NCBI GenBank assembly: GCA_050273025.1
Contig: CP158635.1
Span: 2,418,001 to 2,482,000, forward strand
Length of the DNA stretch: 64,000 nt
Direction of reading: 5' to 3'
Source: Cenococcum geophilum
Taxonomy: Eukaryota
The position numbers and the translations under genes are program-made. Below are positions 3,119 to 61,064 of the stretch, one piece after another. Below the pieces are notes generated by a model. It was not told the DNA's origin. It ran no database searches and saw only the letters and a program-made list of their open reading frames with translations. The stretch's first letter is position 1. The number at the start of each line of letters is the position of its first letter.

Positions 3119-3199
3119 CACGTGATTTAGTAAGTATTAATAGCATAATATTCTTATATAAGATGGGCTTAATTACTTACTAAAATACGGGGTGTCTCT

Positions 3200-5347: not shown

Positions 5348-5594
5348 ATAAGGGCGGTCCTAAATATAGAGCTCTTAGCGTTATTACCGCCCTACTATAT
5401 AACTTAATCTAAAACAGCTATTCGGTTAATCGCCTTATAAGCTCCCTTTCTATAGCTAGTAAGCTCTAATGGCCTAGCGGATAGATTGTTATATAAGGCC
5501 GCCTAACCTATAGGGGGAAGTTAATAGAAATCGCCTACTAGCAAGATGTTTAAGCCTCTAAAATAGTCGTTATTACGCGTAGGGTAGATCTAAC

Positions 5595-18196: not shown

Positions 18197-18463
18197 TTAA
18201 TCTATTAATAGTAAGATCTTAAATATTTTGGTATTCGTTACGTGTATTCTATAGGTAGATACCACTCGCGTTTTTTTTTCTAACTAATAAAAAGCTGGCT
18301 TTCTAATTAATTAGAAGCTAGCTTAGTGGGAGTTTAAAATCTAAAACCCCTAAACCCAAATATATAGACCACTTATACCTTAGGTCAATAAATCCAGATA
18401 GTCCTCTTATAGCCCTTTAGCTTAATTATATATATATCCACTAAGTAGTGCATAGGCGCCTAC

Positions 18464-21400
18464 TATAACAGCGCTATCGCACGTTACCTACTAAATTCTA
18501 CCATATTCTGCCGACTTGCGATTAGCCCGCCCAAAGCTAGCGCCTTAGCGGCTCACCCTATATAATTATTTACATCGGTCCTAGCGACCCCTTTTCCTTC
18601 TCTTTAGCTTAGTATCTTTATAAGATAGTATTCTACAAGCTTTGGTTTAGAAGCACTTATATAAGCTATTATATTATACTAAGCTCTCCCTATATTACCT
18701 AGGAAGGCCTTAATAATATCCTATCCTAAAAAGAAAACTTTGTCTATAATAACGCGTTAATATGCTATACTTAGACACTAAAACAACTTTATATTACCTA
18801 GGAAGGCCTAGATAATATCCCACCTTATAAGCTAGATAGAACTAGACCTATACCCCTAGAATTAAAACTAAAGCATATAATACTGATAAACCCTAGGAAG
18901 CTAATAATGGCACCTAAAGTAAGCTTATTTAAGAGAGTTGCCTCTACCTAAGAGAAACCTAAGATCCAATTGGGATTAGAAATTAAAGATAATAATAATA
19001 TTATAGACATACGCAAGCAGATTCGCGCCCTCGTAGCTAGCTAGAAAGCCAATTGTCTTAAGGTAAAAAATATATAAAAGATCCTATAAGAGATCCTAGA
19101 AAGCCTTACAGCCCTATAAAATAGCCTAGCTTCCCCTTCTTAAAGCCCTAGCTAATATACTTACTCTACTAAATATAATATACTAGGGAGTATAGATATA
19201 ATAATAAAGTAATTAAAGTTTGTTAAGCTCCCTAACCCCTAACTACTACCTAATAGAATAGACCCTACCTTTAAGAATTAGAGGATTTAAGTATAAGGAA
19301 AGCTCTGCGTTAACTATAACTATTTCCTTTCTAAGGAAGCCAAAATGCTCTACCTTTTTAGTCGAACTATTAGGGACGCCCAACGGCACCTTTAAGCCAA
19401 ATTTAAGGACACAATTCCCCTATCCAATTTATATCTATTAATAAGATAATATGGTACCTAGTAGCTATTTATATTAACCTAAACAAAGTATAGGACGCCT
19501 GGTATAATTATAATCGCCTAATAATAAAACCGAACTAACCCTTTATGTCACAGCACTGACCTAACGCATACTGTTTTATACTGTCTTATACTATTTCCTA
19601 CTATTAGCTAGCCTACTACTAGCGACTTAGCGGCCGGCCCTACTATTTGTATACAATACCCCCTTTCCACCTTCTTCCCCTCTTTATACTATAACGTAGT
19701 TATTCAGTCTACTTTATTGCAGCACTGTGACAGTTTATAGTATCTTTAATTTACCCCCCATCGCAATTACTAATTCCCCGTACCCTAGCTAATTGACCTC
19801 CACCCTAGAGCAATCGCAACCTATACGCGCCCCTGCTAAAACCGACACGTCCCCAGCACAGTCCTAGAACGATCCTTAGTTTTTACCTAGTACTTAGATG
19901 GGCGACACTAATAACGCCAAAATAGCCGAAACCTAGAACCCCTATGACATTTTCACAGACCTCTTTATAGAGATATACCCTAATATTATATAGACAATCC
20001 GCCGCTCCCCATTGTACCCTAAGACCTTTAAGCCTAACAAAGCTTACCTTACCCTTATTAACTATACTAACGAGTTCCTTAGTAATATTAAAGTAGGACT
20101 ATAGTGCATATATAATATAAACACCGCTAATAAAAAAGCTAACGAAAACCTTAGTGCCCTTATCGCTTCCCAGATAGGAACTATTAACTCCTAGGTAAAG
20201 ACTATTACCATTTTAAAACAATTAACCCCTATAATAATAGTAGTAACCTAGTAGAAAAAACGGAGATCTAAAGACCCGCTAATATTTAGCGGAAAAGGCA
20301 CCCTACTAGAACGATAAGCTAATTTTAAAACCTAGCATATTAAGATTAAGGGAGTCTTTAACCGGGACTGGGACTACTTTAATATAGTTTAGTCCCAGAT
20401 CCTTTATATCTTAGATATACTAAAGGATAAGGCCTATAAGTTTATTAAGCAGGGCTTAGAGCTTATATATAAGAACCCAAACAATACATCTGCGTGAAAA
20501 TGGCCTACTAAGGAAAATATACTTAAAGACCTTACTACCTACTATAAGGTCCTTAATATAACCCAAGTTATAAAGAATAAGCTTAACTATTTCCCCTAGG
20601 GCAAGTATAATTACTAGTCCTAGAAGGGAGAGCTTAATAAGCTAATAGTTTACGCTAAGAAGACAGACAAATAGAAGGTAGACCTACTCTAAAAGTTTAT
20701 CTCTCCAAAGATAGAAGAGCTAGTACTTAGACTTGCCTATAAAATTAATAACAGCAACTATATAGGTTAGAGTAAGCAGATAGATATATTCGCTAAAAAC
20801 CTCGTAAACTATATATATTAAGCTAACCTTAAGAAAAACGCCAACCACCGCCTACCTGCCCAAGCCCCTACCCCTATATTAACCCCAACCCTAGTAGTAA
20901 CTAGAGAACTTATAAACCTTAATAGAATCTTAGATATAGAGCGTAAGCGCCGCATTAATAATAGACTATACCTTGCCTATAGCCTACCTAGCTACTAAAA
21001 AGATGCCTATAACCCCGCTAAAATAGTAAACCTAGTCCTAATGCCACCTTGTTAAATAACGCGAACTAATAACCGCGGACGTGGTAACCGTGGAGTCTAT
21101 TATAAACGCGGCAACTGTAGAGCCTATTATAGCCGCGGCGGACAACCCCCCCCCCTTTAACCCTACGGCTTAGTTATTTTAAACTATGCCCTATATAGGA
21201 GCCCAACCCGTTAATAACGCCTAGTATTAGCGACTTCGCGCTAGCGAATATAAACACGGCTACGTTATTAGCAAGGTATTATCTTCCTATACCCTAACCA
21301 AAACTAAAACTAATACCACCAGCCAGACGGACACTAGACCGCCCCGCTAAGACAGCCTTATACCCTAGTCGTTAAAAGGTAAACCCTTAAACTAAGTTAT

Positions 21401-24400
21401 ATTTAAGGATCTAAACCATATAAGGAGGAAGACGAGAAAATTAGGTCCCTATTACTAGATTAATTAGTCCTTTCTATTAGTAAACTACTACTTAATCTTA
21501 AATCAGCAAATAGTAATAAGAAATTAATCCTTATTTAAACCTAACTCTCCTTATTACGTAACCTATACCCCTAAGTTTATATTAATATAGTAAGCCTAGT
21601 AGACTCCGGTAATACTATAATGGTATTTACTAACGCAGAGTCTATTATAAGAAAATATAACGTTATAACTAAGAAGCTACTGGCACTTAAGCTACTACGC
21701 CTTGTAAATAGCATCCCAACTTCGCTTATTACAAACTACTTTACCGCCCAAATATTAATCGGCCTCTATACTAAAGCTATACTCTTTTTTATTACTAAAC
21801 TCTCGCCCACTACCCTAATTATCCTAAGTATACCCTAGCTTTAGAAGTATAAGCCCCATCCCAGCTTTAGGAAACTTAAGATCCGCTTTAACTTAGACTA
21901 CTACTTTAAGCACTACCTCCTATAGAGGATAACCGACATTAGCAAGGACGCCTTATATAGATACTCAACACTACTAAGCCTAGTGCCTAGGACTATATAT
22001 AAAGCCCTAATAGTAAAAGACGTTCCTAATAAAGGGGAGCCTATATAGCTGTAAAGAAATAAGATAGTAGAAGACTGGACTACCCTAGCACTTAAGACTA
22101 AAACGATGGGCTAGCCAGCCCCACCAAGACCAAGGAAGAAGGTCCGCTTCGCGCCGCTACTACTAAGAATCCAACCCTAACCTAGGCACTATTTAAACCC
22201 TAGCCGCCTAGCCTAATACCTAGAACTAAGCTATATACTATATACGCACACTATAGCTCGCGTTATAGTAAGGACTAGCTATAGAACTACTAAGACCCAG
22301 ATAATAGAAACCGCGCTACTATAACGCCTAACCTTACACCTGTCTCCCGCGCGTACTATATAGGGCCACCACCTTGTTTCCGCCCCCCTAGGCTAACTAA
22401 GCTGTACTAGCCTAGCCGTAGCACTAGAGAACCAAATACGCCCTAACCTAGACAATATTAAATGCACTTATGCTATTAATTTTACCCAGTTCTATAAATA
22501 AAAAGATATAAAGGTAATAAGGATCTATATAGCGGAGCTAGTAAAACTAGTTAAATAAGATAAGCACCGACAGCTACTTAAAGAGCTACCTATAGGCCTA
22601 ATAGAAGTACCAAACCTATTAAAAAGGTCTTTCCGCTAGCTAGTAAAAGGCAACTATATAATAAAGGAAGCCCGTAAAGTGCTCCCCCCCTATTTCTATA
22701 ACTTCCTTAAGATAAATCTAAAAACTAAACCCAAGCTTTTACATCGGAAGATAGTCGACACTAATGTTAAAAAATTCCTAAAAAGTAAACCAGGATTAAC
22801 CTACGAAGATATTCTACAACGCCTACTAAAGGAGTTTAGTAAATATATTAAGCACTTCTTCCCTAAAAATATAGATAAGCTGCCCCTTTACCAACCATAG
22901 GACTATAAAATTAAGATTACCCCTAGAAACTAGGCCCCATACTATAAAAATAAACCACTCTTACCTACTAAACTTAGGTGTATAAAAAAGTGGATTAATA
23001 AGATGCTAGATAAGGGTTTTATCCGCGAATTAACCTCACTAGCTATTACACTACTCCTCTTTACTACTAAGCCCAGGGTAATATATAAATCTACTATAAC
23101 TACCAAGGCCTAAATATAGTCACTATTAAAAATTAATACCCACTACTACTAATTCGCGAGACACTTAACGCACTTTATAGTGCTAAGTACTTTACTAAAC
23201 TTAATATAATTACTATATTTAACCGGATCCGGATTATAAAGGGCTATAAGTAGCTTATAGCATTTATTACCCGGTTCGGACTCTATAAGATACTAGTTAT
23301 ACTATTTAGCCTTTATAACGCACCCGCTATATTTTAAAACTATATTAACTATATTTTATACAACGCCCTTAACAACTACTGCACTGCCTACCTTAATAAT
23401 ATTCTTATCTTTTCTAAAATATACGCCGAGCACACTAAGTATGTAAATGAAATTATCCAAAGACTTGGTAATACTGGACTTTAGATTAATATTAATAAGT
23501 CTAAGTTCTACTCTACTAAAATAAAATACCTCGGCTTAATTATCTTAACTAATAGTATAACTATGGACCCTAAGAAGGTACAGGCCTTATAGGAATAGAA
23601 AAACCCAACATTAATTAAAGAACTATAACAATTTCTTAGCTTCGCGAACTTCTACTAACGATTTATCTAAGGCTACTCTGCTATTGCTACACCTATAACA
23701 AAACTCTTAAAGAAGGATATTAGATGGCTATAGGGACCAAAATAAGCTAAATCGTTTAAGGCCCTTAAGGGAGCCTTTACTTTAGCACTAGTACTAGCAT
23801 ACTATAACTATATAAAGAAAACAGTGGTAGAGACAGATGTATTAAATTAGGCTTCTAGCGAAGTCCTTTCCCAGTATAACAATAACGGAAAATTAAGACC
23901 GGTCGCATTCTTCTCTATAAAGTACTTTGCGCTAAAGTATAACTATAAGATCTATAATAAAGAACTCTTAGCTATTATTAAGGCTTTAGAGGAATAGCGT
24001 CCTAAGCTATAAGGGACTAAGGAGCCGTTTAAAATTATTACCGACTATAAAAACCTATAGATATTTATAACTACTAAGTAGCTAAACTAGCGCCAAGTCT
24101 AGTGGGTAGAGTTCCTTTTATAGTTTAACTTTATAATTATATACAGACCTAGTAATAAAGCTACGCTCCCTAATACCCTAAGCTGGCTACTAGGAATAAA
24201 ACCTAAGGATACTAATAATAAACGCCTCCGCCACTGAGCCTAAGTCGTTATACCGCCCTAGAAAGTTAACCCTATAATCTTAGAAGAATTACTATACAAG
24301 TCCTATAACTCTAACAACGCGGAGTTTATAGCCGCTCTAGACCCTAAAATAGCTAAAAGGTTACTAGATAAGTTAATCTGGCTAAAATACTAGGAGAATA

Positions 24401-31560: not shown

Positions 31561-32640
31561 TTATTTATATTAATAGCCTTATTTATATAAAAGCAGACCC
31601 TTATATTACCCACTCCCGTATACACTAAATAGTAGGATTTTATAGTGTATGTTATCTTTCCTTAATCCCTCCGCTATAGCTCCTAAATAGCTAATATATC
31701 TAGCTAGGGGTCCGCCTACTCTACCTCTTATAAAAAGTAAAGCAGTACGCCGTTCCTACTATTATTAGTATTATACTATATAATTATAAATGTTTTCCAA
31801 TATCCTAATATAAGAGATCTATACTAGCCTCTAAGTTAGCTAAGTCTGTGCCCTTTAGTATCTATTTACTTCCTTATAACGCAGTTTTAGAGCCTCTAAA
31901 TGCCTCTCTCCAGATTTAGGCTTTTACTTCCACCTCTATATTAAACTTTATATTTAGTAGGGGCTCCTAGGTTACTAAGATTTAAATTAGGGCGTATATA
32001 CTACTATATAGTGCTATTTAAAGTATTAATTAAAGGGTCCTCTAACTTATTTCCTTTCTAAAATAATTAAAAGTCTATAGTGGCCAACCTTTTAGGGGGC
32101 TTCCTCTACCTATATAGAGCTCTCCCGTATAACTATCTCCGTTAGCTTCCTTTTCTTAGCTTATTACAAGGCCTCCTTAATAGTAATCTCGTACTATAAT
32201 TGTAATTGCTATCCGCTTATAGGTGCCTTATAGGTACCTACGTAGTATATTAACGTATAGGCCCTAATTGCTATAGCCTTTTCCTACTATGTCCGCTTAA
32301 CACTATACGCCCCATTCTATACCTTATAGTCTGCTTTATAGTTAATACACTTTTTAGGTAAATCTCCTATACATTCACTAGTGTTATATTACCTAGCGCA
32401 GAGTCCGCATCTAGCCTCTCTCCTATAGCTCTTAGCTATATAGTTAAAGCCTTAGCATTTAAAGCACTGCGTTACTAGAAACGTTGTCTCGTGCCTTATA
32501 ACTAGGTAGTAGTCTCCTCCTAGGAATAGACCCTAATTAAATAACGTATTTACTAACTCTTCTAACTGTATACCTATAATAAGTAATTAATTTCCTTATA
32601 GTCTTTAAATAAAAGCACCTTTAATTAGTGTAATTCTATA
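31561..32640 (-). mobile_element. Tad1-like LINE relic: ORF1 CCHC zinc knuckles and ORF2 AP-endonuclease N-terminus, split by element B (continues at ~18385-18463)
   Basis: QCFKC*GFNYIAKSY..RCGLCAR*YNTSEC (~32370-32480); II*YNTNNSR, LDILAI*EL*RR and RVCFYINK (~31570-31800). The frame continues across the CCTAC TSD as *APMHYLVDIYIIKL..IWIY. Confidence 0.8.
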
Positions 32641-32807
32641 GGATAAATGGTTTATTAAGTATATATAACCTTAGAAAATGGTTAAATAATTAAATAATTA
32701 ATAATTAAACAATTTATTATTATTTTCTTATATAAAACTAAATTATTTAGTAATAAAGCTTAACCATTATTCTTTAATGGTTATATAAGCCACTATATAA
32801 TTAAGTT

Positions 32808-32892
32808 GCCCGCGAAGCCCTACTGCACGCGTCCACGTCGCCGCGGGTGGAAACATCATCAGGAAATCGTTCCTTTTGATGGCTAAGTGCAG
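32808..32892 (+). ncRNA. HDV-like (nested double pseudoknot) self-cleaving ribozyme
   Basis: P1 GCCCGCG (32808-14)/CGCGGGU (32842-48, G1.U wobble); P2 CUGCAC (32823-28)/GUGCAG (32887-92); P3 GCG/CGC; L3 UCCACGU; P1.1 CC/GG (GG at 32849-50); P4 CAUCA..AGGAA-AUCG-UUCCU..UGAUG; J4/2 GCUAA with the catalytic-position C at 32883. Confidence 0.9.
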
Positions 32893-34247
32893 AGGCGATG
32901 GTAGAGAGCCGTCGCAGCGCATGCGACGCGCTGTGGTGTTGAGCTCGCGACGCGTACGAAGCATCGTACAAAGCATCGCCCTCGACAACACCAGGAGCCT
33001 CACTGCCTCCGCTTGAGGCTCCCGTTCTACCACCTAGGGAGGCCTATCAAGGGAAACTGGGATACGAAAACCACCCGACGTACGACTACCTAGCTCGTAG
33101 CTAGGGCCGAAACTGGTCTTATCAAGCCAGCGGATGCGGACGCGTCCTAGGCGTACGACAGGACACCCTTGGGCTTGCACTAGCTCTGAGACCGAGAGGA
33201 TACGGCGAGGGCGTAGGGAACCTCTTTTTATAAGAACTTGTTAAGGTTAACGCGTCGCAGATACTTCGTACGAAACTTGTTAAGGCCCCAAGGCCACCGC
33301 GAAGAACTTGTTAAGGCCCTGCCTAGAGAACTCGTTAAGGCCCCTCTACGAGGGCCTATCTGGTACATTCAGGAGACTCAGAAGAGGGTCTTAATAGGCG
33401 TGGTGCGCGCGACCTGGATGACGACTGCGACGCGACTGCGACGCGACGGCGACGCGACGGCAACCAGACGGCTCAACGAGGTGGAAACACGGGCAAAGCT
33501 CTAGGCAGCGGAAACACAGGCCAGCTTCGACGGCCCCATGGCGTCAAAGGCGACTCACAGGAGGGTCTTAATAGGCGTGGTGCACGCAACCTGATGCATA
33601 TACATATGGGGGAGGCTTTGGAGGAAACACAGGCCAGTCGGACGAGGACTCAACAGTTAGAGACACAGGCCAGCTTATAAAAAGGGGGGACACAAGCTTG
33701 GTTAGTAGAATAGGGTAGAGTAGATCGCCTGGCACGGGATCTAGTCTATAGCCCGTTCTGCAAGACACGGTCGGCCTGTCATGAGGAGACTCCTACAGGC
33801 AACGCGAAACGGGAACTGGCAGTATATAGGGTGTTGCGCCCCTATATTACTACTAGCCTCCCGCGGGGCGTAGTGCGTAGTAGCCACTGCTGGCTCTAGG
33901 GACCTCACCCCTTGACTGGGCTCTGACCCCTAGTGCACCTGGTAGGCAGGCAGGATCACGTCCTGGCCGGAGAGACTACTACGTGGCTCGAGAGAACGGA
34001 TGCGCGTGTCGGTACACCAACAGACGGAACCGTTCGCTAGGACGGCACGCCGGTGAGATGTGCTTAAGGAGCAAACAGGAGTTACCCAGGCGGGAGAGGT
34101 TTTTGGCCGGGCCTCAACCGTAGAAGGTGTGTGAGGTGTCCAATAGATGTGACGAAGCCACTGGAAAACTGGGGTAGAGGCCTGGATAAGCAGGCATGTC
34201 GAACTCTACTGTATTACTAGCACTACTAGCTAATATATAACTACCTG
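32808..34247 (+). repeat. Full-length GC-rich non-coding unit (~1.44 kb), copy 1
   Basis: Homologous to 34248-35611 and 60376-61064; no credible ORF; internal sub-repeats and hairpins; ends ...TAGCTAATATATAACTACCTG. Confidence 0.85.
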
Positions 34248-35611
34248 GCTTGCGACGCGTACCACCGTACAAGGCATCGCCCTCAACAACACCAGGAGCC
34301 TCACTGCCTCCGCATGAGGCTCTTGCCCTACCACCTAGGGAGGCCTATCAAGGGATACTGGGATACGAAAACCACCCGATGTACGACTACCTGGCTCGTA
34401 GCCAGGCCCGAAACTGGCCTTATCATCTAGTCAGTCGACGTGGACGCGTCCTAGTCGTACAACAGGACACCCTTGGGCTTGCACTAGCTCTGAGATCGCA
34501 AAGGGACGCGGCGAGGGCGTAGGGAACCTCTTTTTATAAGAACTTGTTAAGGTTAACGCGTCGCAGATACCTCGTACGAAACTTGTTAAGGCCCCAAGGC
34601 CACCGCGAAGAACTTGTTAAGGCCCTGCCTAGAGAACTCGTTAAGGCCCCTCTACGAGGGCCTATCTGGTATCCGGTACACTCAGGTGACTCAGAAGAGG
34701 GTCTTAATAGGCGTGGTGCGCGCGACCTGGAAGACAGCGACGCGGCGACGCGACAGCAACGCGACGGCGACGCGACGGCGACCAGACGGCTTAACGAGGT
34801 GGAAACACGGGCAAAGCTCTAGGCAGCGGAAACACAGGCCAGCTTCGACGGCCCCATGGCGTTCGACCAGGTGACTCACAGGAGGGTCTTAATAGGCGTG
34901 GTGCACGCAACCTGACGCATATGTATAAGGCGACTCACAGGAGGGTCTCAATAGGCGTGGTGCACGCAACCTAATACACACATATGGGGGAGGCTGTAGG
35001 GGAAACACAGGCCAGTCGGACGAGGTCTCGACAGTTAGAGACACAGGCCAGCTTATAGGAAGGGGGGACACAAGCTTGGTTAGTAGGAGAGGGGGAGTAG
35101 GTCGCCTGGCACGGGACCTAGTCTATGGCCCCCTCCTGCAAGACACGGTCGGCCTGTCATGAGGAGACTCTTACAGGCAACGCGAAACGGGAACTGGCAG
35201 TAGTATAGGGTGTTGCGCCCCTACACTACTACTAGCCTCCTGCGGGGCGTAGTACGTAGCAGCCACTGCTGGCTCTAAGGACCTCACCCCTTAGCTGGGC
35301 TCTGACCCTTAGTGCACCTGGTAGGCAGGCAGGATTACACCTGGCCGGAGAGACTGCTACGTAGCTCGAGAGAACGGATGCGCGTGTCGGTATATCAACA
35401 GACGGAACCGTTCGCCTCTAGGGCGGCACGCCGGTGAGATATGCTTAAGGAGCAAACAGGAGTTACTCAGGCGGGAGAGGTTTTGGCCCGGCCTTAACCG
35501 TAGAGGTGGTGACGCCCAAAGGTGGGAATAAGCCACTGAAAACTGGGGTAGAGGCCTGGATAAGCAGGCATGTCGAACTCTACTATATTATAGCTAATAT
35601 ATAACTACCTG
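34248..35611 (+). repeat. 5'-truncated copy 2 of the non-coding unit (lacks the ribozyme)
   Basis: Starts GCTTGCGACGCGTAC (equivalent to ~32943 in copy 1) and ends at the same ...ATATAACTACCTG terminus. Confidence 0.85.
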
Positions 35612-37913
35612 TCCAAATGAGGCCCTAAAAACCTGTGGGCCACTTATAGCACCTTGGCTTGCAGATGTAGCCAGAGCATGCTTTGCTATAGGCTACTACC
35701 CGCGACTCGGAAGATCTATGACGACGGTTGTCCTACGAAAAGAAGGCAAAGTAGATTACTCAATCCCAGGAAGCTACCGCCCTATTGCCTTAGAAAACAC
35801 CCTTAGCAAGATCTTAGAAAGGGTAATAGCGGAACACATGGCAGACACGGCAGAGGAACACGCCCTACTACCACAAAGCCAAATAGGGGCAAGAAAGAAC
35901 CGCTTAACACTATCAGCACTTACGCTACTCGCTGCCACCATTAAATCTGCATGGGCGATGCGAAAGGACTTTATAGTATTAATGCTTAGCCTAAACATCA
36001 GTGGTGCCTACGACAATATACCCTACGAGCGTCTCCTGCATATCCTTAGGGCAAAGGGCTTCCTAAAATAGATTATATAATTTATCCAAGGGTTTACAGG
36101 CCAGAAAGAAATATTACTGGTCTTCAGCGGATACCAGAGCCCCCCTATCGCAGTTATAATAGGAATACCATAAAAATCACCCCTCTCACCTATACTCTTC
36201 CTTTTCTTTATAAGCAACCTACTTAACTCCTTTAAGAAAGGGGCGACCCAGGGGATAGGCTTTATTAACGACACAAACCTAATTATATATGGGCCAACAG
36301 CCGTAAAGAATTGCAGAACACTAGAGAAAGCCTATAACACTTATATAGAATAGGCAAAACGTTATAAAGTCTAATTCTTATTAAAGAAATACCAACTAAT
36401 CTATTTCACAAGAAAACGCAACTAATCTGTAGATCTCTAATATATAATTCGCATCTAAGGCTTTAGGGGTTAACCAGTTCAGGGCCTAAGGGTATTAGAA
36501 GTATAGGTAGATAGCAAGCTCCGGTAGAGCGCATATGCGGCATAAGTAGCCCGTAAAGGCCAAGCACAGTTTATTGCTTTATCTAGGATTATCAACTCCA
36601 CATAGGGTCCATACTTCTAGAGGTCACGCCTACTATATACAGCAGTTATCCGGCCAACCATAATATATAGATCCAGTATTTGGGCCATTAAAGAAACTAA
36701 AAAGGGCCCCCCTAAATTACTCCTTAAACTACTTTAAAAGGTCCAGACAGCCTACCTTTAGAGTATTACAGGCGGGTATAAGCAAACGGCCACAGCACTA
36801 CTTAAGAAGGAATCTAATATTCCCCCCTTATAGTTATATATTAAAGCTGCTGTAATATAAAGGACGCAAAATAAACATAACTCTAATGTTATAAAGTATA
36901 TTAAGACACGCCTAAGTAAACTATAGAGGGACCCTAGGGTGCCCCGTAGGAGAACAAACCAACAACTCTAAAGTAGGAAAGAGATATTAGAGAAATAGGT
37001 AAAGAAAGTAAAAGAAGAATAGTGCCGCTTTAGGGCCCAGGCCTATATAGAGGAGAAAGGGAAACGCGTAAGAGGTTAGCAAAGATAACAGTAAGATAAA
37101 GAAAGGAGCTAAAGTAGAACATGTAAGAATGCCAGGAAACTATCTACCGTAATACAATACTGGTTGGACCAACGCTGGAGAGGTAAATAGGAGTCGAAGG
37201 TATAAAGGCTAACTTAGATAAGACAAACCTAAGCCATAGCATAGTTAACGCTATAGGGGGTAAATACCTAAGAGCTCCGAGAAGGCCTAATAAAGGCAGA
37301 AAACATAATAGTAACACTCTTAAGAACAGGAATAATAGGACTAAAAGATTGGCTTTACTAGGTAGGTATCCTAGTAGGTAGCCCGAGATGTAAATATAGC
37401 TAGCTAAAACAGACACCAAAACACGTAATACTGCTATACCCCCTACGCACTAATTAAGAAATAATACTCTTAGTAGCTAATATAGAGAACTATAATACAC
37501 TGCTCTTAATATAAAAAGGCCTTAAGGCGGTTACCTAGTGGCTTATTAGTTAAAATGTGCTAAATCAGTTCTGGGTTGCAAGAGAAATAGTAATAAAAGG
37601 TAAGGGGGCGAGCAGCAGGTGCCCCCTAGTAACTCTATAGTAGTAGAGTAATAGTTTATAATACTAGCGCGTTTATAGGCTTGTTACGGCAGCAGTGGTT
37701 CCTAAAAAGGTTAAACAGTAAGGTAGTAGAGCACCATAGGCGACTTATAGGCGCTAAGTAGGCGAGTCCTAAAAGGCGGGGAGATAGATCACGGGGTTTT
37801 CTCATTTTTCTTAAATAGAGTTTTCTCCCCATATGTAAATAAGGAGTAGTCCGCGTGGGCCTAATAGGGATCTAAATCGGACGTTAAGCAATGAATTATT
37901 ATTATTATTATTA
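35612..37913 (+). mobile_element. 5'-truncated Tad1-like LINE: RT, C-terminal zinc-knuckle region, 3' UTR, (ATT)n tail
   Basis: Begins mid-RT (PNEALKTCG...YRPIALENTLSKILE...LNISGAYDN; ORF 35718-36071), then GIP*KSPLSPILF, GFINDT and a C-terminal C..QTPKHV motif (~37390-37430). Confidence 0.92.
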
Positions 37914-38779
37914 ATATAATTAAGTTTTTATTAAAAAATAAATGATATAATATATAACTTGTTTTTCTACTACTTTATTTAATATAGTAACCCTTAAATC
38001 TATTATACTTTTCTTCTATAAAATTAAAGTATTAGGACTATATTTTAAAGTATTTTTTTAATAATATAGGCTTAATTTAGAAACATTATATTTTTAAATA
38101 ATAATATAAGGCCTAGAAAGAAAGTCTGAAAGCACAAATAATTAAACTTAAATAATATACCTTTAATATTTATTTGTAAAATCTATAAAAGGGCTTTATA
38201 TTTATATAGTTTAAAAATAAGGCTTTAATAAAGGCTATAGGTTTTAAATAAGCAAATAGCAATTAGTTTAATATTATAGATACCTTAAAAAAGCCATATA
38301 ATATATATTATATTATTTAAAGTCTCTGCACTAAGTATATACTTAATTAAAAGATTTATCTACTTTTATAAAAAGTAAGTTAATAACTTTAGCAACTTAC
38401 TATAAAGGCTATATATAAGGTCACTAAAATATACTACCTATAATCACAGCTTAAGGACCTTAAAGGCTTAAAAATTTATAAGTAGGTAGCAATAGATTTA
38501 GATATATAATTTATAAATTTAAATTTAAGTAAGTAAGTAAAAGAGGAGGTAGTAGGGAATAAAGGCTAAAATAAGGGTAAAAGAGCTAAAATCAAAGCCT
38601 TAAAAGGTGATAGATGGAAAGGCGAAGGTCGATATACTAAATAGCACGTAAGGGCAAATAATCAATTAAATTTAGTTAGGTGTAGTTGGCTTCTAAAGTA
38701 GTAGTGATTAATTTGGTAAGGTAACTAAGTTTAGGGGTTAACCGAGTTCTAGGGGTCCAAGCTTAGCTTATATTTACTA

Positions 38780-41973: not shown

Positions 41974-43167
41974 CTTTTATTATAAGGTCCGTAATAATAG
42001 CTACTTAGAACGGAACTTAAGGAGCTATAGGGGGTAATATAGGCTGTAATAAAACTTGTAGGACTATATAATAAGTACTAGGCGAGTTATATAATATTAT
42101 AAGCGAAGTCCACGAGGTATAACGTATATATATAAAATAAACTTAAAGGGATTTCCTAGGAGTTAGGAGTTATACTTAAAGATCTATAGTCCCTACCAGA
42201 TTTAGTTTACTCTTTATAGTAAATCTTAGAATTAATTAGAGTTAATTAATTAGGTACTTACTCTCTAGTTTAGCATAGTATATTTATTTCCTATATATTT
42301 AGCCTATTAATATAACTACCGTAGTATTTCCTATAAGCTATTGTTATACACAAGACCTTCTATATCCGATATAGATATTAATTATTAAAAAACTTCAAAT
42401 CGTAAAACGGGAGGCGAAGGAATGCGATAATAGCGATAACGACGATAATGGTAAGGAGCTTCTAGCTAAGGTTACTTATATATATAACTTTTATTAATAG
42501 TATTAACTTCCTTACCACCATATCTAAAGTAACGATAGACTGTTTAGCTACCTTTAGTAAGAGGAATTTAAACGTTGTAAGTGTATATAAGAGGACTATA
42601 GCTTTAAAATATACTACGGCGATAATAAGAAACATATTACTAAGGATATTAATAATAATCCTTTTGCTCCCTAACAAACGCGACTTAAGATAAGAGAGGC
42701 TTTAGAAACCATTAAGGATTAGTTTTACTAGATTAAGGAGAAGACCACTTAATTAGAGCCCGATATACGGGAGAAGTTAATAAACTAATAGCTATTAAAG
42801 CTCAATTAAGCCGCTAGTAAAGCGTGGCAATAGGACGTTAAGGAGTTTATTAAGGAAATCGGTAGGAATATACGAGTGAGCAATATAGAATACCAGAATA
42901 TCTGTATACAAACTGGATCTTATATATTAAAAGAACTTTATTTTTGACCATGCGCTGTGGATGTTAGGGAGATGGACGTGCAAAGCACGTTCTCCAATAA
43001 TTAGTATGGGCGTCCCATAGTAAACATCGGAGATGGAGCTTTCCGACACCACCGACGATGGCCCGCGCAGGCACTATTATGTAAGTAATACCGCTTAATC
43101 GAATTTTCGCAGCACTTTCGAGTCACTCTTTTCCTTACAAGCGCCCACACCTTCAACAATCTCTATC

Positions 43168-44625
43168 ATGGCTCCATCAACCCCTCCAATCGGCGGGATT
43201 GCTCAACTCGCTGTGGGTAAGCACCGAAAGTCCCTCAATCTTAGCAGAGCAGCTTCTACATACGATCCCATGAATGTACAAGATCCAATAAAGCCGGCAA
43301 TCCGCCAGCGCATCGCATCCCTTGAGAAGACCCATCAGGATTTTTTAGAAGAGGACAAGAAAAGAAAACGAGACATTTCGGACTCTTCAGTTGAGTCTAT
43401 TTGCGACCGTTACGTCAAACAGAAGCAGAGTAAAATAAGCCCCGATGCACTCGACAAGTTGTACATGGAGAAGATCCAGAGCCGTATTAGTGCCCGAATA
43501 CGCCTCACTGAGTCCCACCTGGGATACCGAAACCTCGAGCTGCAACATCTACTAGACGCCCGGAAGAGCGGTGCGTTAAAGTACCCTGAATTCGCCCAGA
43601 GTCGAGACCTTCTCGAGGGGCAAATCCGGCATATGCGCTTAGAACTAATAGGACTAAAGCGTCAAGAGGGCGTTCTTAGGGGCAAACTCTGGGATTCTCG
43701 TCATTTCATTCAAGAGCAAAACGATGTGGATGTGGCCGTGGATCAACTAATGGATAACATCATCCGCACATATAGTATTACTCCAGCAGCTCCGACTAGC
43801 TATCCGGAATACCACAAACCGCAGAACAAGCGCGACGGTCATCAGTCCCAGTTTAGACAAGCGCTGATCAAATTTTACAACGCTCCAGATCCTGATAATG
43901 CAACAGTCAGCGTACCGGATGACTATTGTTACTGGTGTCCTATCTCCCACCAATACTTTAGGAGCCAGTCTATAACAGCGGCACATATCGTGCCATTTGC
44001 TATCGGAGAAACCAATTGCAATTACCTCTTTCCTGACGACGATATGAGTCCAACAGGTCACCTTATGCATCCGGGAAATGGTCTCCTAATGCATTCTTCT
44101 CTCGAACAGGCTATGGACAAAGCACGCATCGCCATAGTTCCTGCCGATGAAATGAACCCGAGCGCACGCGATCTTAAGGTTGTGGTCTTTGATCGGACTA
44201 TTATTAAATCTAGGGATAGTGGCTTGGGCATTCCATGGGCTAAGCTTGATGGACTCCGATTAGAGTTTAAGAATGACAACCGGCCTAGACTCCGGTACCT
44301 CTACCTCACCTTCCTAATGAGCCTGTTTCGCCGCCGAAGATTTGAATGCACCGGTTGGAGGAGTGACTTGGCACGATATGCAAGTGGGAAAATGTGGGCT
44401 TCTCCTGGGAATTGGGTTCGGGGGTCGAGTATTAGAGTAATCGCACGTCGTGTTGCCTATGAAACTCATCTCGAAGCCTTCGTGGGTACTCACGACTTGC
44501 CGTTGCAACCAAGGACGATAGATGAACGAGATGATGAAGTTATGGCGGATGAGGTCATGGAATCGTATGAAGCCAAAGTTTTAGGAAGCTTGAAAGAGCA
44601 GGAAGTGAATGACGAGGAGGATTGA
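43168..44625 (+). CDS. Intact intronless 485-aa protein: N-terminal coiled coil + HNH-type (HNH_2-like) endonuclease domain + acidic tail
   Basis: Only long ORF in the window; normal GC and CpA content (no RIP). Motif WCPIS..ITAAHIVP...NGLLM..LEQAMD followed by L.F.ND.RPRLRYLY, typical of fungal HNH nuclease-domain proteins. Confidence 0.85.
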   Translation: MAPSTPPIGGIAQLAVGKHRKSLNLSRAASTYDPMNVQDPIKPAIRQRIASLEKTHQDFLEEDKKRKRDISDSSVESICDRYVKQKQSKISPDALDKLYMEKIQSRISARIRLTESHLGYRNLELQHLLDARKSGALKYPEFAQSRDLLEGQIRHMRLELIGLKRQEGVLRGKLWDSRHFIQEQNDVDVAVDQLMDNIIRTYSITPAAPTSYPEYHKPQNKRDGHQSQFRQALIKFYNAPDPDNATVSVPDDYCYWCPISHQYFRSQSITAAHIVPFAIGETNCNYLFPDDDMSPTGHLMHPGNGLLMHSSLEQAMDKARIAIVPADEMNPSARDLKVVVFDRTIIKSRDSGLGIPWAKLDGLRLEFKNDNRPRLRYLYLTFLMSLFRRRRFECTGWRSDLARYASGKMWASPGNWVRGSSIRVIARRVAYETHLEAFVGTHDLPLQPRTIDERDDEVMADEVMESYEAKVLGSLKEQEVNDEED

Positions 44626-47811: not shown

Positions 47812-50800
47812 TATAACGGAACCTTATAGCAAAAACTACAATGGGTCCTGTTATTGGGCTAGGTGTATAAGAAATGCAAATAATAGTAGTCGACAATGTA
47901 ATAATAACTAGTGGAGTAGTTGCCTAATAAATTAACTTTAATTGTATTCTAAGAATTACTATAAGGAAGGAACTATCTAGGTAGGGACTAAGGGTCCTTA
48001 AATACACAACCGTACTCCTATAAAATCCTTCTTATACATAATATATATCTTATATATAAGGTATATAAGTTCCTCTCATTCCTCTCGTTTAATATATAGC
48101 ATATTATATAACCTTAGCTACTATTCCTTATTATATAGTTCTACTAGTTCTATCCTAGACTGTACTTAAATTAACTAACTAGCTTCTTCTAACTCTTCTT
48201 TAAGTAGTTATAATATTATACTTAAAGCGTCCATAATACTATCTCCCTCCTCTTTATCTTTGTCCTTAAAGATTTAAAATATCTCTAAGTTGTTTACTAG
48301 AGGTATAATATCTATTTAATTAATTTAGTTAATATTGTTGCTTATTATACCTAAAGCAATTTCTTCTTTATACGCCCAACGTCGTGCTTATACTATTGCT
48401 GCAATATTATCTCTTAGTAAGATTATACCGTCTCTATATTCTTGTTATTTAAAAGAGGGGTTAGTTTATATTGCGTTAGCGAACCCATTTTCGCAATAAC
48501 CGTCCTCTTACTTAGAGTGCACTAAAGCGAATATTTATTTATCCTATAATGTTTGCTTTACTTCTAATACTAAATATACGTAACCTATTACTCTTAATAG
48601 TCGTCTAGTTCCCTAATTAATTTGTCTTAGGGTCTTATGTTTAATCTACTACTATATAGCTAAATAGTAAACTGTCTTAAGCCCTTACTAAGTTAGAATG
48701 TTCTTATAATGCGGAATAGAAGGCCCTAAACGCTTATATTACAGCGTCTGCTTAACTATTTCGTCTTAAGAAGGTTTGTAAGAAGGTCTGTTTTAAGAAG
48801 TAGAAACTTATAAAATAAGGTTTATAGGAACTTAGTAATAAAAGAATGGATTCTCTTTTAATAGAGAAGGAAATAAATCCAAGTAGCTCGGCAACTGCTC
48901 TTCTTAGGTCCCCCTTAGGTGACTTATTCTTTAACGATCCTTTTTTATTAATACTACCTAACCTAATCTCTTCTAATACTCTTATACCTTTTTTATAGCA
49001 TTCTTTAGATTCTCTAGTAGCTCTTAGGTAGTCTTAGTGTAGCCTATCCACTTAACCTTATACTATATTTTATCGTTAATATTTTTATAACTAATAATCT
49101 TTAAAACTTACTATTTGTCTTCTTCCTATCCTCTATATATGTCTACTTTATAGACCGGTGGCTTAATATTTCTATATACTAGCTCTAGCATTATAATATA
49201 CTATATAGGGTAGATCTTTATTTTAGCTAGTAGGTTTAACTTAAATATAACCGGTAAAATCCTTTATATAATTTTAAAAGGTCCTAGTCTAATATAGTTT
49301 AACTTCTTACTTAGTCGTTAACTCTTAAAATTTTTGTATAGTAGCCATACTTTATCTCCCTCTTTAAGATCTAGTCCCTTAGATCTCTTAGTATTATAGT
49401 ACCTTTTTATTCTCTCTTATACTTTCTTTACTAATTCTATAAGGTTTATATAAAGATTTATTAATATCTTTATTCTTTCTTTAGCTATGCTACTCGTTTT
49501 CTTCGCTTACTATAGTAATAATAATATTCTTAGCTTATATCTATAATTTGCCTTAAATAGTAATATACCTATTCCTTCTTAAGGTATTATATTATATATA
49601 AACTATATAATTAGTAATAGCGATACCTAATTATTCTATATATAATTAATATAATACCTTAGATACTACTCTAGTATTTAATTTAGTCTTTCTATTTAAC
49701 CGTCTGTCTGTAAATAATATGCGGTAAAAGTTACTGCTTAAACTTTTTGCTTTACTAAGAATACTTTCTAAAATACTACTATAAATCTTAGATCTCTGTC
49801 TAATATAATCTTACTTAGTACTCTATATTTTATAAATACTTCTTTAATATAGATTCTAGCAATATCTTTTACTAAGATTTCTTCTATATATACTATAAAG
49901 TATCCCTACTTTATAAGCTTATCTACTATTACTAAAATTACGTTATAATCTTATCCGGTAATAGGATCTTTTAACTTTAGTAACTTTATAATAAAGTCCT
50001 ATAATATAACCTCCCATAGTCTTTCTAGTGTTTTAATAGGTTGTAGCCCTCTATATAGCTTATGCCTTATTAGTTTATTCCTTTAGCAATCTAAACACTC
50101 TTTTATTACTTTTCTTACGATATTCCAGATTCTATTAATAATGTATTCTTCCTAAAGTCTTAACACTAAGCCTATAGCTCCATTATATCCTTAGGTTAAT
50201 CCCTTATAAAATTCTTCTATAAATTGCTCCGCTATACTTCTTAGGATATACTTTACTTCTCAGTTTTCGTATATATTTGTTTATGGATCTTCTAGCTATA
50301 CTTTTAGAATTCTTTATACCTAAAAGCTCTCTAGTATCTTATAGACTTTTTTTAGTTCTTCCTAAGTTGCTATATTTTTTGGATAATTATACCTAATTAA
50401 TCCGTCTGTGTCTTTTTACAGTAAAGCCCCTAATAGCTTTTTATTATCTTATAGTTTAGCCTTTTATCTTAGAGCGTCTGCTTACGTATTATCTATACCC
50501 TTAGTATATTAAATCTCGAAATAGTATTCTATAAGCATCTCTACCCATTTAACCTATCTTTAGTTAAGTTCCTTTGTTATTAGGAATCCTATTAGGTTTT
50601 TATAATCTATCTTAACTATAAATAGTTTCTTTATACCTTGTAAGAATGCTCTCTATTTCTTTAATACTATAACTATACCTAATAACTCTTTATTATAGAT
50701 ATTATAGTTTAACTCTAGTAGTGTTATCTTCCAACTATAATATACCACTAGGTGCTATCTATTTTAATATCTCTATATAAAGCACGCCCCTAGTATATAG

Positions 50801-53800
50801 TTTAATATATTTGTTTTTATAACCGTCTCTAGTCCTAGTTAATAGATCTTAAAAACTGGCTTCTAGGTAAATAACTCTTTAACTTTCTTAAATAGCTCTT
50901 ACTATTCCTTTCCCTATACCTATAGTTCTTCTTTCTTTATTAATCGCGTAAATAGTTTAATATCCTTTAACTATTGCGCTATAAACCTTCTATAGTAATT
51001 ACAAAACCCTAGAAATAATCTTAACTATATAACGTTCTCTAGTTCTTACTAATTTACTATAGCCTTAATTTTCTTTAGATCTATACTAAGTTGGCCTAGT
51101 TTAATAATAAATTCTATAAAATTAGTCTTCCTAGTAAAGAACTCGCATTTCTTAATTACTACTAGCATCTATTCTTCTTATAGTCTCTTTAAGACCTATT
51201 TAACGTGTTCCCCGTGTTCTTCCTTAGTTATTAAGTAGATAATAATGTTATTAAGGTATACTATAACGAATTTATCTAAGTATTCTCCTAACACATTATT
51301 AATACGCTTTTAGAATATTACTAGTGCGTTTATAAGCCCAAATTATATAACTAATGGCTTATATAGTTCTTCCTTTAACCTAAAAGCTGCCTTTTATTTA
51401 TTACCTTCCTTAATCCTAATCTAATGGTATGCCTATCTTAGATCTATCTTTATAAAGATTTACGCGTTGCCTATCCTATCTTAAATTTTACTAATTAAGG
51501 GTAAAGAATACCTATCCTTCCTAGTAATGCTATTTAACTATCTATAGTTAATATATAGCCTTAGTTTACTATTCTTCTTTGGTATAAATAGTACTAGGTA
51601 ACCTGCTAATAACTATAATAGTCTAATATATCCCTTTTGTAAATTTTCTTAGACAAACTCTTTTAATGCTCTACCTTCTTCTTTGGTAAGCTTATAGATT
51701 GGAAAGAACCTTAGACTTATTCCCAGTTTTAATTCTATCTTATAGTCCTATACTATATAATCTGCTAGCTTTTTACTATACTTATAGTATCTCTTTAGTA
51801 CGTAACTTAAGCCTTACTTAGTCTCTTTATATATCACTCCGACTTAGTACTATACTAACTTAGTTTACTATTACCTCTTACGTTATTAAGTATCTCTAAT
51901 ATTAACCTAGCCTATAATCCAATTAATTTTTAGATTATATTCCTATAACTAAGGCATGTCTAATACTGCCTTATCCCTTCCTAATAGTAGGATATTAAAA
52001 GATATCTTAATTTATCTCCCTTTAATAGTTATCTAAATAGGTCCTGTTTTAAGACTAATAATCCCTCCTCTATAGGCTATTAGATTTCCTAAAATTATAA
52101 CTAATAAGTAAGGTTGCTCCTTCTATCTATAAGGTAATTCTATTCACTTAACTGCTATTAATAAGATATAGTTTCGCGTTACTTTACTATCTATTAGCAC
52201 TTTAAACTACTAATCTTACTATTTAACTTATAAATTTAGGTATCGTCTTTAAATTCCTTTAAGGGTCTAAGGCTTTACTACTAGCTCCCTTTAATCCTAT
52301 AGGCCTTAACTTTTCCTAACTATTAGCTACTTAATCCTTATATACTTAGCTTAATTTTTAGCTAATACCTAGTTTACTTCTTATCTTTAATATACTATAG
52401 ATACGTATTCTCTAAGCATTTCTACTACTATCCGTCTAAGCATTCTTCTATAAGAAATCTTTTTAGTTAAAGTATTAAGTCTTCTAACTCTTAAACTTCT
52501 GTTAAATGCCATCTATATATATACTTAGTATTCCTATACTATCGCTTATCTAGCGCCTAATATATCCTTATAGGGTATTTCTGATTCTTTTCCTTTAGAT
52601 TCTTATACATTTTATATATATCGTCTACGTATGCAATCCATAATAGTATATAGTATACTAGGTACTTTAGGTTAACTCTTAATTTATCTTTATTCTTAAG
52701 TTTAAACCTCTACTATGCTAATCTAAACGTTGCGACTTTATTTGTAGGTACTAAAATATGCCTTTTACTTCTCTAGTCCTCTAATTATTTCTTTAGATCC
52801 TTTAACGTTATAATTAAGGCTCCTTTAATATAAGTTATAGCCTTCTTTATAATTAGGTAGTCCTAGATAACTTTTTCATCCAACTATATATAGAAATCTT
52901 CCCACTTATCGTTATGTCTTTATCTATACTACTTTTAGTATAGCTATTAGAGTATATATAGCTTGTCTATAAGAAAGTATCTTCTTATTACTATATTATA
53001 ATAGCCCTTTATATATCGTTCTTTAAACCTAATAGTAATCCCTAAATCCTTTTCATTTTCCAGTTTAGTAAGCTACTTAGCTCTTAGTATGCCTGCCCTA
53101 GGCCTATTAGTAATTCTTTATACTAGTACTTTATCCCTTATACATCCTAATATGCTAAATCTCTTATTTAGTTTCTGTTCTTACTATACGATAATTCTTT
53201 GCCTAAATTCTTCTATAGTTTCCTTTAGTTTACGTCTTACTAATAGATCCTTAAAGTCTTCTTGCTTCTTAATCTTAGTATTAACTTTTTAATCTTTAGG
53301 CCAAACACTGCGTTCCCCTAGTAAGTCTTCTAGGTCTATATATCTGTCTCCTAACCTAACTACTATTTATACTGCGGATTCTCTAATCCCTTACCTTTTA
53401 CTTATAGGTGTCTTTATTCGTACTCCGAATTCTTAATCCCTTAGATTCTTTAATCCTAAGCTTACTTCTAACTTAAGCTTAGCTCTAGCCTTAGTCTAAC
53501 TAGGCTTACTTAGTGTTCTTATCTCGTTTTAAAAGTCTTAAATCTTACTTATCTCTTCTTAAGAATCTTATACCGGTAGAAAACTTCGTCCTAAGCTTAT
53601 TCGTATATTGCTAAACTGAGCTATTACTCTACTCTATCGGTTATTGTCCATTATAGGTTCTTAAGCTTGCCTTATCTCGTCTTGAGAATCTTAATTATCT
53701 TATATCTTATCTTAAGCTTATGGCCTTTTACCTTTATTAAGTGCTAAAGTGATTTACTATCCTACTTCTCTTATATTTTATAAAGCGATAGATATTATAT

Positions 53801-60375: not shown

Positions 60376-60461
60376 GCCCACAAAGCCCTACTGCACGCGT
60401 CCACGTCGCCGCGGGTGGAAACATCATCAGGAAATCGTTTTCTTTTGATGGCCAAGTGCAG
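60376..60461 (+). ncRNA. Second HDV-like ribozyme copy (P1 5' strand damaged: GCCCACA)
   Basis: P2, P3, L3, P1.1 and the P1 3' strand are identical to 32808-32892; two G->A changes in P1; J4/2 is GCCAA. Confidence 0.8.
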
Positions 60462-61064
60462 AGGCGATGGTAGGGAGCCGTCGCAGCGCGTGCAGCACGC
60501 TGTCGTCGCGGTTCTGTGGTGTTGAGCTCGCGACGCGTACTATCGTACAAAGCATCGCCCTTAACAACACCAGGAGCCTTACTGCCTCCGCTTAAGGCTT
60601 CTGCTCTACCACCTAGGGAGGCCTATCAAGGGATACTAGGATACGAAAACCACCTAATATACGACTACCTGGCTTATAGCTAGGCCCGAAACTGGCCTTA
60701 TTATTAGCTAGTTAACGTGGACGCGCCCTAGTCATACAACAGGACACCCTTAGGCTTGCACCAGCTCTGAGATCGTAAGACGAGGGCGTAGGGAAACCCT
60801 TTTTTATAAGAACTTGTTAAGGTTAACGCGTCGTAGATACCTCGTATAAAACTTATTAAGGCCCCTAAAGCCACCGCGAAGAACTTGTTAAGGCCCTACC
60901 TAGAGAACTCGTTAAGGCCCCTCTACGAGAGCCTATCCGGTACATCCAGGAGACTTAGAAGAGGGTCTTAATAGGCGTGGTGCGCGCGACCTGGATGAGA
61001 CAGTGACGCGACAGCGACGCGACGGCGACGCGACGGCGACCAGATGGCTCGACGAGGTGGAAAC
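60376..61064 (+). repeat. 3'-interrupted copy 3 of the ribozyme-headed non-coding unit
   Basis: Homology to copy 1 starts at the ribozyme G1 and stops after GAGGTGGAAAC. Confidence 0.85.

Follow-up and report, generated by a model that had tools for sequence, protein, structure and literature searches.

The stretch analysed here (the window) comprises 64,000 nucleotides (nt) of the Cenococcum geophilum genome (GenBank assembly GCA_050273025.1, contig CP158635.1, positions 2,418,001 to 2,482,000 of the forward strand). It contains, at 32795-37926, a composite insertion in which a full-length non-coding unit headed by a predicted hepatitis delta virus (HDV)-like ribozyme and a second, 5'-truncated unit of the same family precede the 3' part of a long interspersed nuclear element (LINE), here named LINE-A. 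The parts of this insertion, and a separate second insertion of the unit family, are as follows:

32795..32807 (+): 5' copy of the 13-bp target-site duplication (TSD), ATATAATTAAGTT, whose final base adjoins the first ribozyme nucleotide, G1
32808..32895 (+): predicted HDV-like ribozyme, from sub-threshold Rfam matches, a pairing count and a family covariance model
32808..34247 (+): unit 1 (U1), full-length and non-coding, 1,440 bp, with the terminus ...TATAACTACCTG
34170..34213 (+): conserved 3' stem-hairpin of U1, 34 nt ahead of the unit terminus, from RNAalifold
34248..35611 (+): unit 2 (U2), 5'-truncated, starting at unit position 136, with no ribozyme and with the terminus ...TATAACTACCTG
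35612..37894 (+): LINE-A 3' part, 2.3 kb, corresponding to positions ~3261-5544 of the 5,544-bp reference copy from locus L024
37895..37913 (+): LINE-A tail, (ATT)6A
37914..37926 (+): 3' copy of the 13-bp TSD, ATATAATTAAGTT, directly after (ATT)6A
60376..61064 (+): separate second insertion of the unit family, from a sequence match and a covariance model score of 104.6 bits

The initial annotation had proposed that a 13-bp TSD surrounds the whole insert, that the insert opens with G1 of an HDV-like ribozyme and that the 1.44-kb unit has no coding capacity, and all three statements are borne out: ATATAATTAAGTT has exactly two occurrences in the window, at 32795-32807 and 37914-37926 (seven matches with up to one mismatch vs. 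2.16 expected), its 5' copy abuts G1, and stop-to-stop frames within the units reach at most 113 aa, with no Pfam match in the seven unit frames scanned. The insert proper (32808-37913) consists of three parts, U1, U2 and the LINE. The 5'-truncated second unit that had been described is present and starts at unit position 136, but its end lies at 35611 and not at 35606; likewise, the LINE piece does run to an (ATT)n tail, but it starts about 40 codons upstream of the reverse transcriptase (RT) domain rather than within it. U1 and U2 share an identical 3' terminus, ...TATAACTACCTG, and U2 aligns to U1 from 32943 on in two BLAST pieces (90.4% and 89.5% identity), the differences being 67 transitions, 25 transversions and indels, among them an additional subrepeat of 57 bp. 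In the LINE frame that starts at 35613, the sole Pfam domain detected in LINE-A is RVT_1 (E 1.9e-15; residues 43-264, nt 35739-36404); the frame stays open for 152 codons, to 36071, beyond which it meets 51 stops, every one TAA or TAG, in a manner resembling repeat-induced point mutation (RIP).

This RIP-like damage is patchy inside the single insertion: the LINE piece is spared over its first 460 nt, where the (CpA+TpG)/(ApC+GpT) index is 1.16, and the remainder is strongly affected, with an index of 0.75 dropping to 0.56. The G+C content of both units stays at 57%. The template RNA may have been transcribed from a LINE copy that had already been RIP-mutated. The units also contain a 45-47-bp subrepeat, GACTCACAGGAGGGTCTTAATAGGCGTGGTGC..., found at 33370-33416 and 33548-33593 in U1 and at 34683-34729 and 34868-34972 in U2 (two to three per unit, the number differing between units), and four GAACTTGTTAAGGCC-like repeats lie at 33227-33340.

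The head of the unit folds, in a structure written by hand, into a nested double pseudoknot with P1, P1.1, P2, P3 and P4 in canonical order (30 pairs, six helices). P1 pairs GCCCGCG with CGCGGGU through a G1-U wobble, P2 pairs CCU.CUGCAC with GUGCAGAGG, P3 is GCG/CGC with UCCACGU as L3, P1.1 is CC/GG, and P4 is a two-part stem, CAUCA..GGAA/UUCC..UGAUG, with GCUAA as J4/2. Helix names and residue roles, including that of the presumed catalytic C at 32883, are those we take to apply from general knowledge of the HDV fold. Over 92 distinct copies the proposed partners pair in 98.1% of 2,755 cells, vs. 38-53% when they are slid by one to three columns; the G1-U41 pair is G-U in 86 of the 92 distinct rows and A-U in five, and the C at alignment column 79 (window 32883, within GGCUAAG) is invariant. 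Two Rfam models match the window copy over their full length, RF02682 at 31.8 bits (gathering score 44; E 2.3e-4) and RF00094 at 30.9 bits (gathering score 50; E 7e-3), and L118, a copy from a divergent subfamily, matches RF02682 at 33.3 bits, also below threshold. This subfamily, to which L028 and L074 also belong, has a different P4, and in L118 P2 carries a transversion-type compensatory change, from U17-A87 to A-U. A covariance model built for the family returned 67 matches in 841,880 bases, namely 64 index copies and three known second copies, and nothing outside unit 5' ends; in the rest of the unit Rfam recognizes no further family at E values up to 1, and the ribozyme core has no matches in viral contigs. 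Together, the predicted fold and the recurrent G1 start described below suggest that unit RNA would cleave itself 5' of G1, and by analogy with the RNAs of R2 and L1Tc it would most likely be released from a surrounding transcript by this predicted ribozyme of its own.

Related copies were collected by scanning public metagenome contigs with the ribozyme core, which gave at least 121 loci (designated L plus a number), 80 of them with 8-kb flanks. Among the matches listed, homology starts at ribozyme position 1 in 117 of the 119 copies that have upstream sequence, with the start motif GCCCGCG in 107 and RIP-type variants of it in 10, the two exceptions being the 5'-truncated L110 and the ambiguous L108. 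Within this set the first 40 nt of the unit are on average identical between copies at 39.2 of 40 positions, and no relationship is seen among the 117 upstream flanks that are 40 nt or longer, which agree with one another at 12.7 of 40 positions on average and at 27 at most; no continuation upstream of G1 is seen among the core-retaining copies listed. Such uniform placement of the 5' end at G1 is consistent with an RNA that owes this end to ribozyme cleavage. Unit subfamilies with large indels coexist, at lengths from ~1,430 to 1,850 bp, and the family is highly repeated, with thousands of contigs from DNA runs aligning to the unit.

The second copy in the window, at 60376, starts at the same G1, although its P1 is altered by G-to-A changes (GCCCACA). 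It is 87% identical to U1 positions 1-681 and stops after ...GGTGGAAAC, at 689 bp; this loss of the 3' part at unit position ~681 is unexplained by template switching and is probably due to a later insertion or deletion. Units split by later multi-kb insertions occur at L009, L040, L045 and L076 (in L009, unit positions 1-188 are followed by positions 180-733, which resume 5.5 kb further on), and because of these interruptions the family must be old enough to have been struck by other elements.

The unit family is transcribed. In the raw data of RNA run X21, 306 reads map within 32797-34216 and practically none to the 5' flank; most are 90-95% identical to the window unit, which assigns them to other copies. 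The first mates map mostly to the minus strand; provided that the library is of the common dUTP kind, and only then, this corresponds to plus-strand (sense) RNA. Read depth peaks at ~100 over the 45-47-bp subrepeats, vs. 5-25 elsewhere. RNA contigs of run X15 also cover the unit and not its flank, in a type of library in which DNA may be present. Both reads and contigs were aligned to 32300-34400, an interval that covers the first unit.

All 59 verified unit ends (from 53 sources) finish in CCTG (40) or CCTA (19). Between 13 and 37 nt before this terminus lies a 3' element in which an outer stem, GGUAGAG/CUCUACU, surrounds a hairpin, GCCUG/CAGGC; RNAalifold on 20 copies predicts 14 pairs, eight of them with compensatory changes that come mainly from the divergent L028 and L074, and even these two retain the terminal AUAACUACCUG. 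The minimum free energy (MFE) fold of the last 158 nt is about as stable as those of shuffled sequences (z -0.81). The conserved stem-hairpin is a candidate signal for formation of the unit's 3' end.

What follows this fixed end is variable. LINE-A, numbered here by the 5,544-bp copy from L024, is the partner in 31 chimeras including that of the window, at 26 distinct junctions from position 1 to position 5169. LINE C, which is poly(A)-tailed, accounts for 12 chimeras with no fewer than 10 junction positions, and LINE B for four chimeras, both LINEs being assigned from RT motifs seen by eye (for LINE C, a YIDD motif and an RNase H-like segment); LINE D, with Pfam matches to Exo_endo_phos_2 and RVT_1, is the partner in two. 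The 3' end of the unit is unlike all four LINE tails. Duplications of 12-16 bp, one copy before G1 and the other after the LINE tail, are found at 22 of the 56 loci examined, most of the others running off the fetched DNA, and in other LINE-A chimeras too an ...GGACGTTAAGCAATGAA(TAA/ATT)n end precedes the TSD. This recurrent placement speaks against the concern that the 13-mer match in the window might be fortuitous. The fetched loci offer no clear case of a solo unit with its own TSD among their 59 unit ends; at L001 one ambiguous 9-mer follows the unit, and a better 13-bp TSD follows its LINE tail. Several unit ends in series occur at L011, L031 and L063 (which has three ends), with 5'-truncated units inside that begin at other truncation points, and a contig of DNA run X1 carries a multi-unit insertion with yet another truncation point. 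The U1-U2 arrangement thus represents a recurrent type and not a local duplication.

The donor side of the junctions has a preference of its own. Among the 26 distinct LINE-A sites, 16 begin with CC, a dinucleotide with a frequency of 5.7% in LINE-A (binomial P ~4e-14), and CC-initial donors account for 31 of all 59 unit junctions, the CC being native to the donor. Two other origins for it were considered. Non-templated or CCA-type addition is rejected, as the LINE reference itself has CC at the place concerned in every LINE-A case, allowing for C-to-T RIP, and an origin as part of the unit 3' end is unlikely, given that 28 of the 59 junctions place CCTG or CCTA directly on other donor sequence. 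It is because junctions without CC join CCTG directly to the donor that the acceptor most likely ends in ...CCUG, and the unit RNA would accordingly present a free ...CCUG 3' end to the RT.

Several individual joints are of interest in their own right. At L074:1290-1495, in a divergent, non-RIPped copy from another metagenome, the unit end ...AATAACTACCTG is joined in sense to coding PAFWLHHTNVDRLFALWQ..., a CC-initial sequence that matches the end of the Pfam Tyrosinase domain (E 1.1e-7) before the contig stops 97 nt later; judged from sequence, this looks like a chimeric retrocopy of a unit and an mRNA. Another divergent unit, at L028:1340-1420, is joined to CC-initial coding sequence for a CCHC zinc knuckle (Pfam zf-CCHC, E 3.3e-4), probably the first open reading frame (ORF1) of a LINE from another fungus. 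At L042:4625-13699 a unit-LINE-A chimera with a 15-bp TSD is nested inside a full-length LINE-A on the opposite strand, the two halves of the host LINE covering positions 12-2201 and 2188-5541.

The copies show directly how the insertion is built, that units start at G1 again and again and finish at a fixed 3' end, that the junctions vary, that TSDs are present, and that the unit is independent of the LINE-A 5' end (see below). A fixed acceptor end combined with a variable donor point, varied donors and a single TSD is the pattern expected of an RT that switches to a free unit RNA, and template switching would then be the step that joins unit and LINE; a like argument has been put forward for MINE (described below) and for U6-L1 chimeras (PMC2104539). 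On this basis we consider it likely that the unit is a discrete non-coding RNA and has spread through template switches onto it by the RTs of four or more LINE families. The window insertion would have arisen in one target-primed LINE insertion, in which reverse transcription set out from the (ATT)n terminus of a LINE-A RNA. After some 2.3 kb the RT would have left this template for the 3' end (...CCUG) of a 1.4-kb unit RNA, abandoned that RNA in turn at position 136 for the 3' end of another unit RNA, distinct from the first, and run on to the 5' end of the latter, which is G1 of the HDV-like ribozyme. The unit, which has neither a reverse transcriptase nor a LINE-like 3' end and is seen only 5' of LINE parts, would thus owe its spread to its use as a switch acceptor.

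Other histories can be imagined for the same structure, of which the simplest would make the unit the LINE's own 5' untranslated region (UTR) and the composite element an internal-deletion derivative comparable to the R2 SIDEs and NARTc. LINEs with 5' HDV-like ribozymes and derivatives of this kind have been described (R2 SIDEs, PMC3414825; L1Tc/NARTc, PMC4035085), and at L024 and L078 the unit does stand ahead of a complete LINE-A. However, six full-length LINE-A copies (L022, L040, L042, L063, L072 and L100) are free of the unit and all start ...ACTTTTGGAGCTC amid unrelated flanks, and at L024, L078 and L049 the unit end meets LINE-A at positions 1, 2 and 28, respectively, so that the unit side of the joint is fixed and the other side varies. 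The LINE-A copies that lie incidentally in the fetched flanks, a biased sample that permits a rough count, include two with the unit and ~9-10 without. The partners, moreover, belong to four different LINE families. Because full-length LINE-A exists without the unit, has no Rfam ribozyme in its 5' end, and the family covariance model matches only units, we reject internal deletion as extremely improbable; the earlier proposal of a discrete sequence, as opposed to a LINE 5' UTR with a fixed junction, is upheld by the six unit-free LINE-A copies, the 26 junctions and the three further LINE families. A tandem duplication or unequal crossing-over after insertion, to which the adjacency of two 90%-identical units might point, is hardly credible as the source of U1 and U2: the joint runs from the exact 3' terminus of U1 to a position inside U2, a register that does not suit unequal crossing-over, the two units are set apart by indels and 25 transversions, and like joints with other truncation points are present in L011, L031, L063 and the X1 contig.

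Two further readings deserve more weight, even though we regard both as unlikely. U2 and the LINE could have been copied together from the transcript of an older unit-LINE-A chimera, which would leave a single switch, at position 136, and two templates instead of three. MINE chimeras of Magnaporthe are indeed transcribed, according to the main text of the study that described them (PMC2104539), and in our collection four LINE-A junctions recur at different loci, partly with different unit subfamilies: CCTG|TCCAAAT, at LINE-A 3261, is common to the window, L012 and L015, at different insertion sites, and 3273, 2010 and 3114 are each used at two loci. The units of L012 and L015, however, belong to a different subfamily with ~318 nt near the 3' end that U2 lacks, which makes the shared junction look like a hot spot; hot spots common to distinct chimeras are also reported for MINE (PMC2104539), and the 31 LINE-A chimeras use 26 distinct sites. 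The other reading, which we find similarly improbable, takes the unit for a host non-coding RNA gene (like U6, or like WEIRD as it was proposed to be) that is captured passively, its copies being dead and its ribozyme serving the host transcript. That the unit family is transcribed and keeps its 3' stem-hairpin, with covariation, across divergent lineages would agree with a host function, as would the want of any solo or master copy, both here and in the published description of Magnaporthe (PMC2104539). Against it stand the several subfamilies (~1,430 to 1,850 bp) each joined to the same LINEs, for which many sources fit better than one gene, the very high copy number in DNA runs, and the position of the ribozyme at the extreme 5' end, which is what a promoter-less copy needs for re-expression.

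A number of results also weigh against the preferred reading itself, in which a self-processed unit RNA serves as switch acceptor, and the shared junction at 3261 is one of them. As regards the ribozyme, nothing in the window reaches an Rfam gathering score, the HDV models being built from a small number of viral and bacterial sequences; the MFE fold, computed as a nested structure in a model to which pseudoknots are foreign, is about as stable as those of shuffles (z -1.37); conservation at ribozyme positions 18-46 is partly by construction, these being fixed in the search pattern; and the two-sided changes in P4 are mostly of RIP type (C-G to U-A) and possible without selection, so that covariation is limited. 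The scan itself detects solely copies that keep the ribozyme core and is silent on the number of 5'-truncated ones. With respect to the RNA, depth in X21 is uneven (~5 at the ribozyme, 0-4 at 32868-33080 and ~100 at 33507-33648) and reads pile up neither at G1 nor at 34247, and a discrete 1.4-kb RNA goes beyond what such coverage supports. Nor is there an evident source for the 3' end: Rfam finds no known ribozyme at the unit 3' end at E values up to 1, there is no tRNA-like gene in 32000-38500, head-to-tail full units, in which the following ribozyme could set the 3' end of the unit before it, number zero (four pattern matches, all spurious, involve the ribozyme half only), and no locus among the copies examined accounts for formation of the ...CCUG end. 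Finally, no empty-site allele of the window insertion was found, in reads that, aligned to 32300-34400, could not have revealed one.

A bolder extension, which we offer tentatively as possible rather than probable, is that the unit is a selfish "5' hitchhiker", an RNA that spreads solely as a switch acceptor, with the ribozyme regenerating its 5' end and the stem-hairpin with ...AUAACUACCUG regenerating or presenting its 3' end, and that WEIRD, hitherto taken for a possible housekeeping RNA whose gene is missing, belongs to the same class. Such a hitchhiker would need a 5' ribozyme because new copies land without a promoter, and it would need the 3' stem-hairpin with ...AUAACUACCUG because LINE debris follows each copy.

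Elsewhere in the window, an intact 508-aa frame at 43099-44625 (+) encodes an HNH_2 endonuclease domain (Pfam E 2.4e-8) and sits in a GC-richer island (0.44-0.49) amid AT-rich, RIP-degraded DNA. The intervals 11000-22000 and 49000-55000 show strongly negative GC skew (-0.2 to -0.37) at 25-38% GC and probably represent large RIP-degraded elements on the minus strand. The DNA downstream of the second unit copy (61065-64000) is made up of other repeats; an abundant one, unrelated to the unit, begins at ~61987 and is also present at 16184-18199, at 56523-57806 and at many other loci.

Among known systems, 5' HDV-like ribozymes are described for R2 and its SIDEs (PMC3414825) and for L1Tc and NARTc/SIDER, as Pr77 (PMC3185411, PMC4035085). 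As far as those accounts describe them, they resemble the unit in that the ribozyme occupies the first base of the RNA, DNA copies begin at the cleavage site, and release from a co-transcript is possible. They differ in that the ribozyme is the LINE's own and the derivatives keep the LINE 3' end, whereas the LINEs found here are without a ribozyme and the unit is without a LINE 3' end. This latter feature also sets the unit apart from short interspersed nuclear elements (SINEs), as it has neither a LINE-like 3' end nor a tail and no solo copy with a TSD among 59 unit ends. Retrozymes are non-coding, ribozyme-bearing, non-autonomous retroelements with circular RNAs that are mobilized by the RT of another element, and in these the monomer is cut out by hammerhead ribozymes located in repeats; the unit, by contrast, has one HDV-like ribozyme, and no head-to-tail units were found. 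U6-L1 and other mammalian chimeras of LINEs with small nuclear RNAs (snRNAs) consist of an abundant RNA with a fixed 3' end added 5' of a truncated LINE and flanked by a TSD (PMC2104539). The likeness lies in addition to the 5' side of the LINE by template switching, as we propose for the unit; the partner there, however, is a small Pol III RNA whose gene is known and which has a function in the cell, as characterized in that source (PMC2104539), whereas the unit is 1.4 kb long, ribozyme-headed and present at very high copy number.

The closest parallel is MINE (WEIRD-MGL) of Magnaporthe grisea/oryzae, which, as described by Gogvadze et al. in 2007 (PMC2104539), combines a full-length non-coding RNA of ~1 kb on the 5' side with a 5'-truncated LINE on the 3' side. 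The main text of that study reports TSDs of 10-20 bp, tripartite elements from double template switches, one of them with a 14-bp TSD, many junctions with some shared hot spots, transcription of WEIRD and no solo WEIRD (PMC2104539). WEIRD itself is given there as a 1.1-kb RNA whose function was not known and which had no matches elsewhere in 2007; such chimeras have been known in the rice blast fungus since 2005-2007, and one MINE insertion there inactivated the avirulence gene ACE1 (PMC2104539). Compared by description rather than by sequence, the two systems agree in layout, in having no solo copies, in hot spots and in three-part forms (PMC2104539). They differ in that the Cenococcum unit begins with an HDV-like ribozyme, a word with zero occurrences in the main text of the MINE paper, and measures 1.4-1.85 kb as opposed to the 1.1 kb of WEIRD; in that four LINE families, other units and mRNA-like sequence act as partners here; in that donor sites are CC-initial (16 of 26) where those of MINE are given as GCC*A/U; and in that relatives of the unit exist in more than one fungal lineage, compared with none for WEIRD in 2007 (PMC2104539).

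The layout of the chimera is thus already published, as MINE. The ribozyme-defined partner, in contrast, appears new: in a literature search conducted mostly outside subscription journals we found no description of a ribozyme-headed partner RNA in WEIRD/MINE or in fungal LINE chimeras, which agrees with what the initial annotation had surmised. Three other features look new as well, namely a 3' stem-hairpin that is conserved, partnership with several LINE families and the preference for CC donors. With hundreds of independent events, the family offers a natural system in which to see where and how LINE RTs switch templates. The nature of WEIRD and its missing gene were left open in the MINE work, as its main text presents it (PMC2104539); if the ribozyme at base 1 of the Cenococcum unit works, the partner RNA would process itself and any copy could express it anew, and this would account for its abundance as well as for the missing "master gene". 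If that is true, HDV-like ribozymes would have, in fungal mobile DNA, a role different from the one they play in R2 and L1Tc, heading a passenger RNA instead of the LINE.

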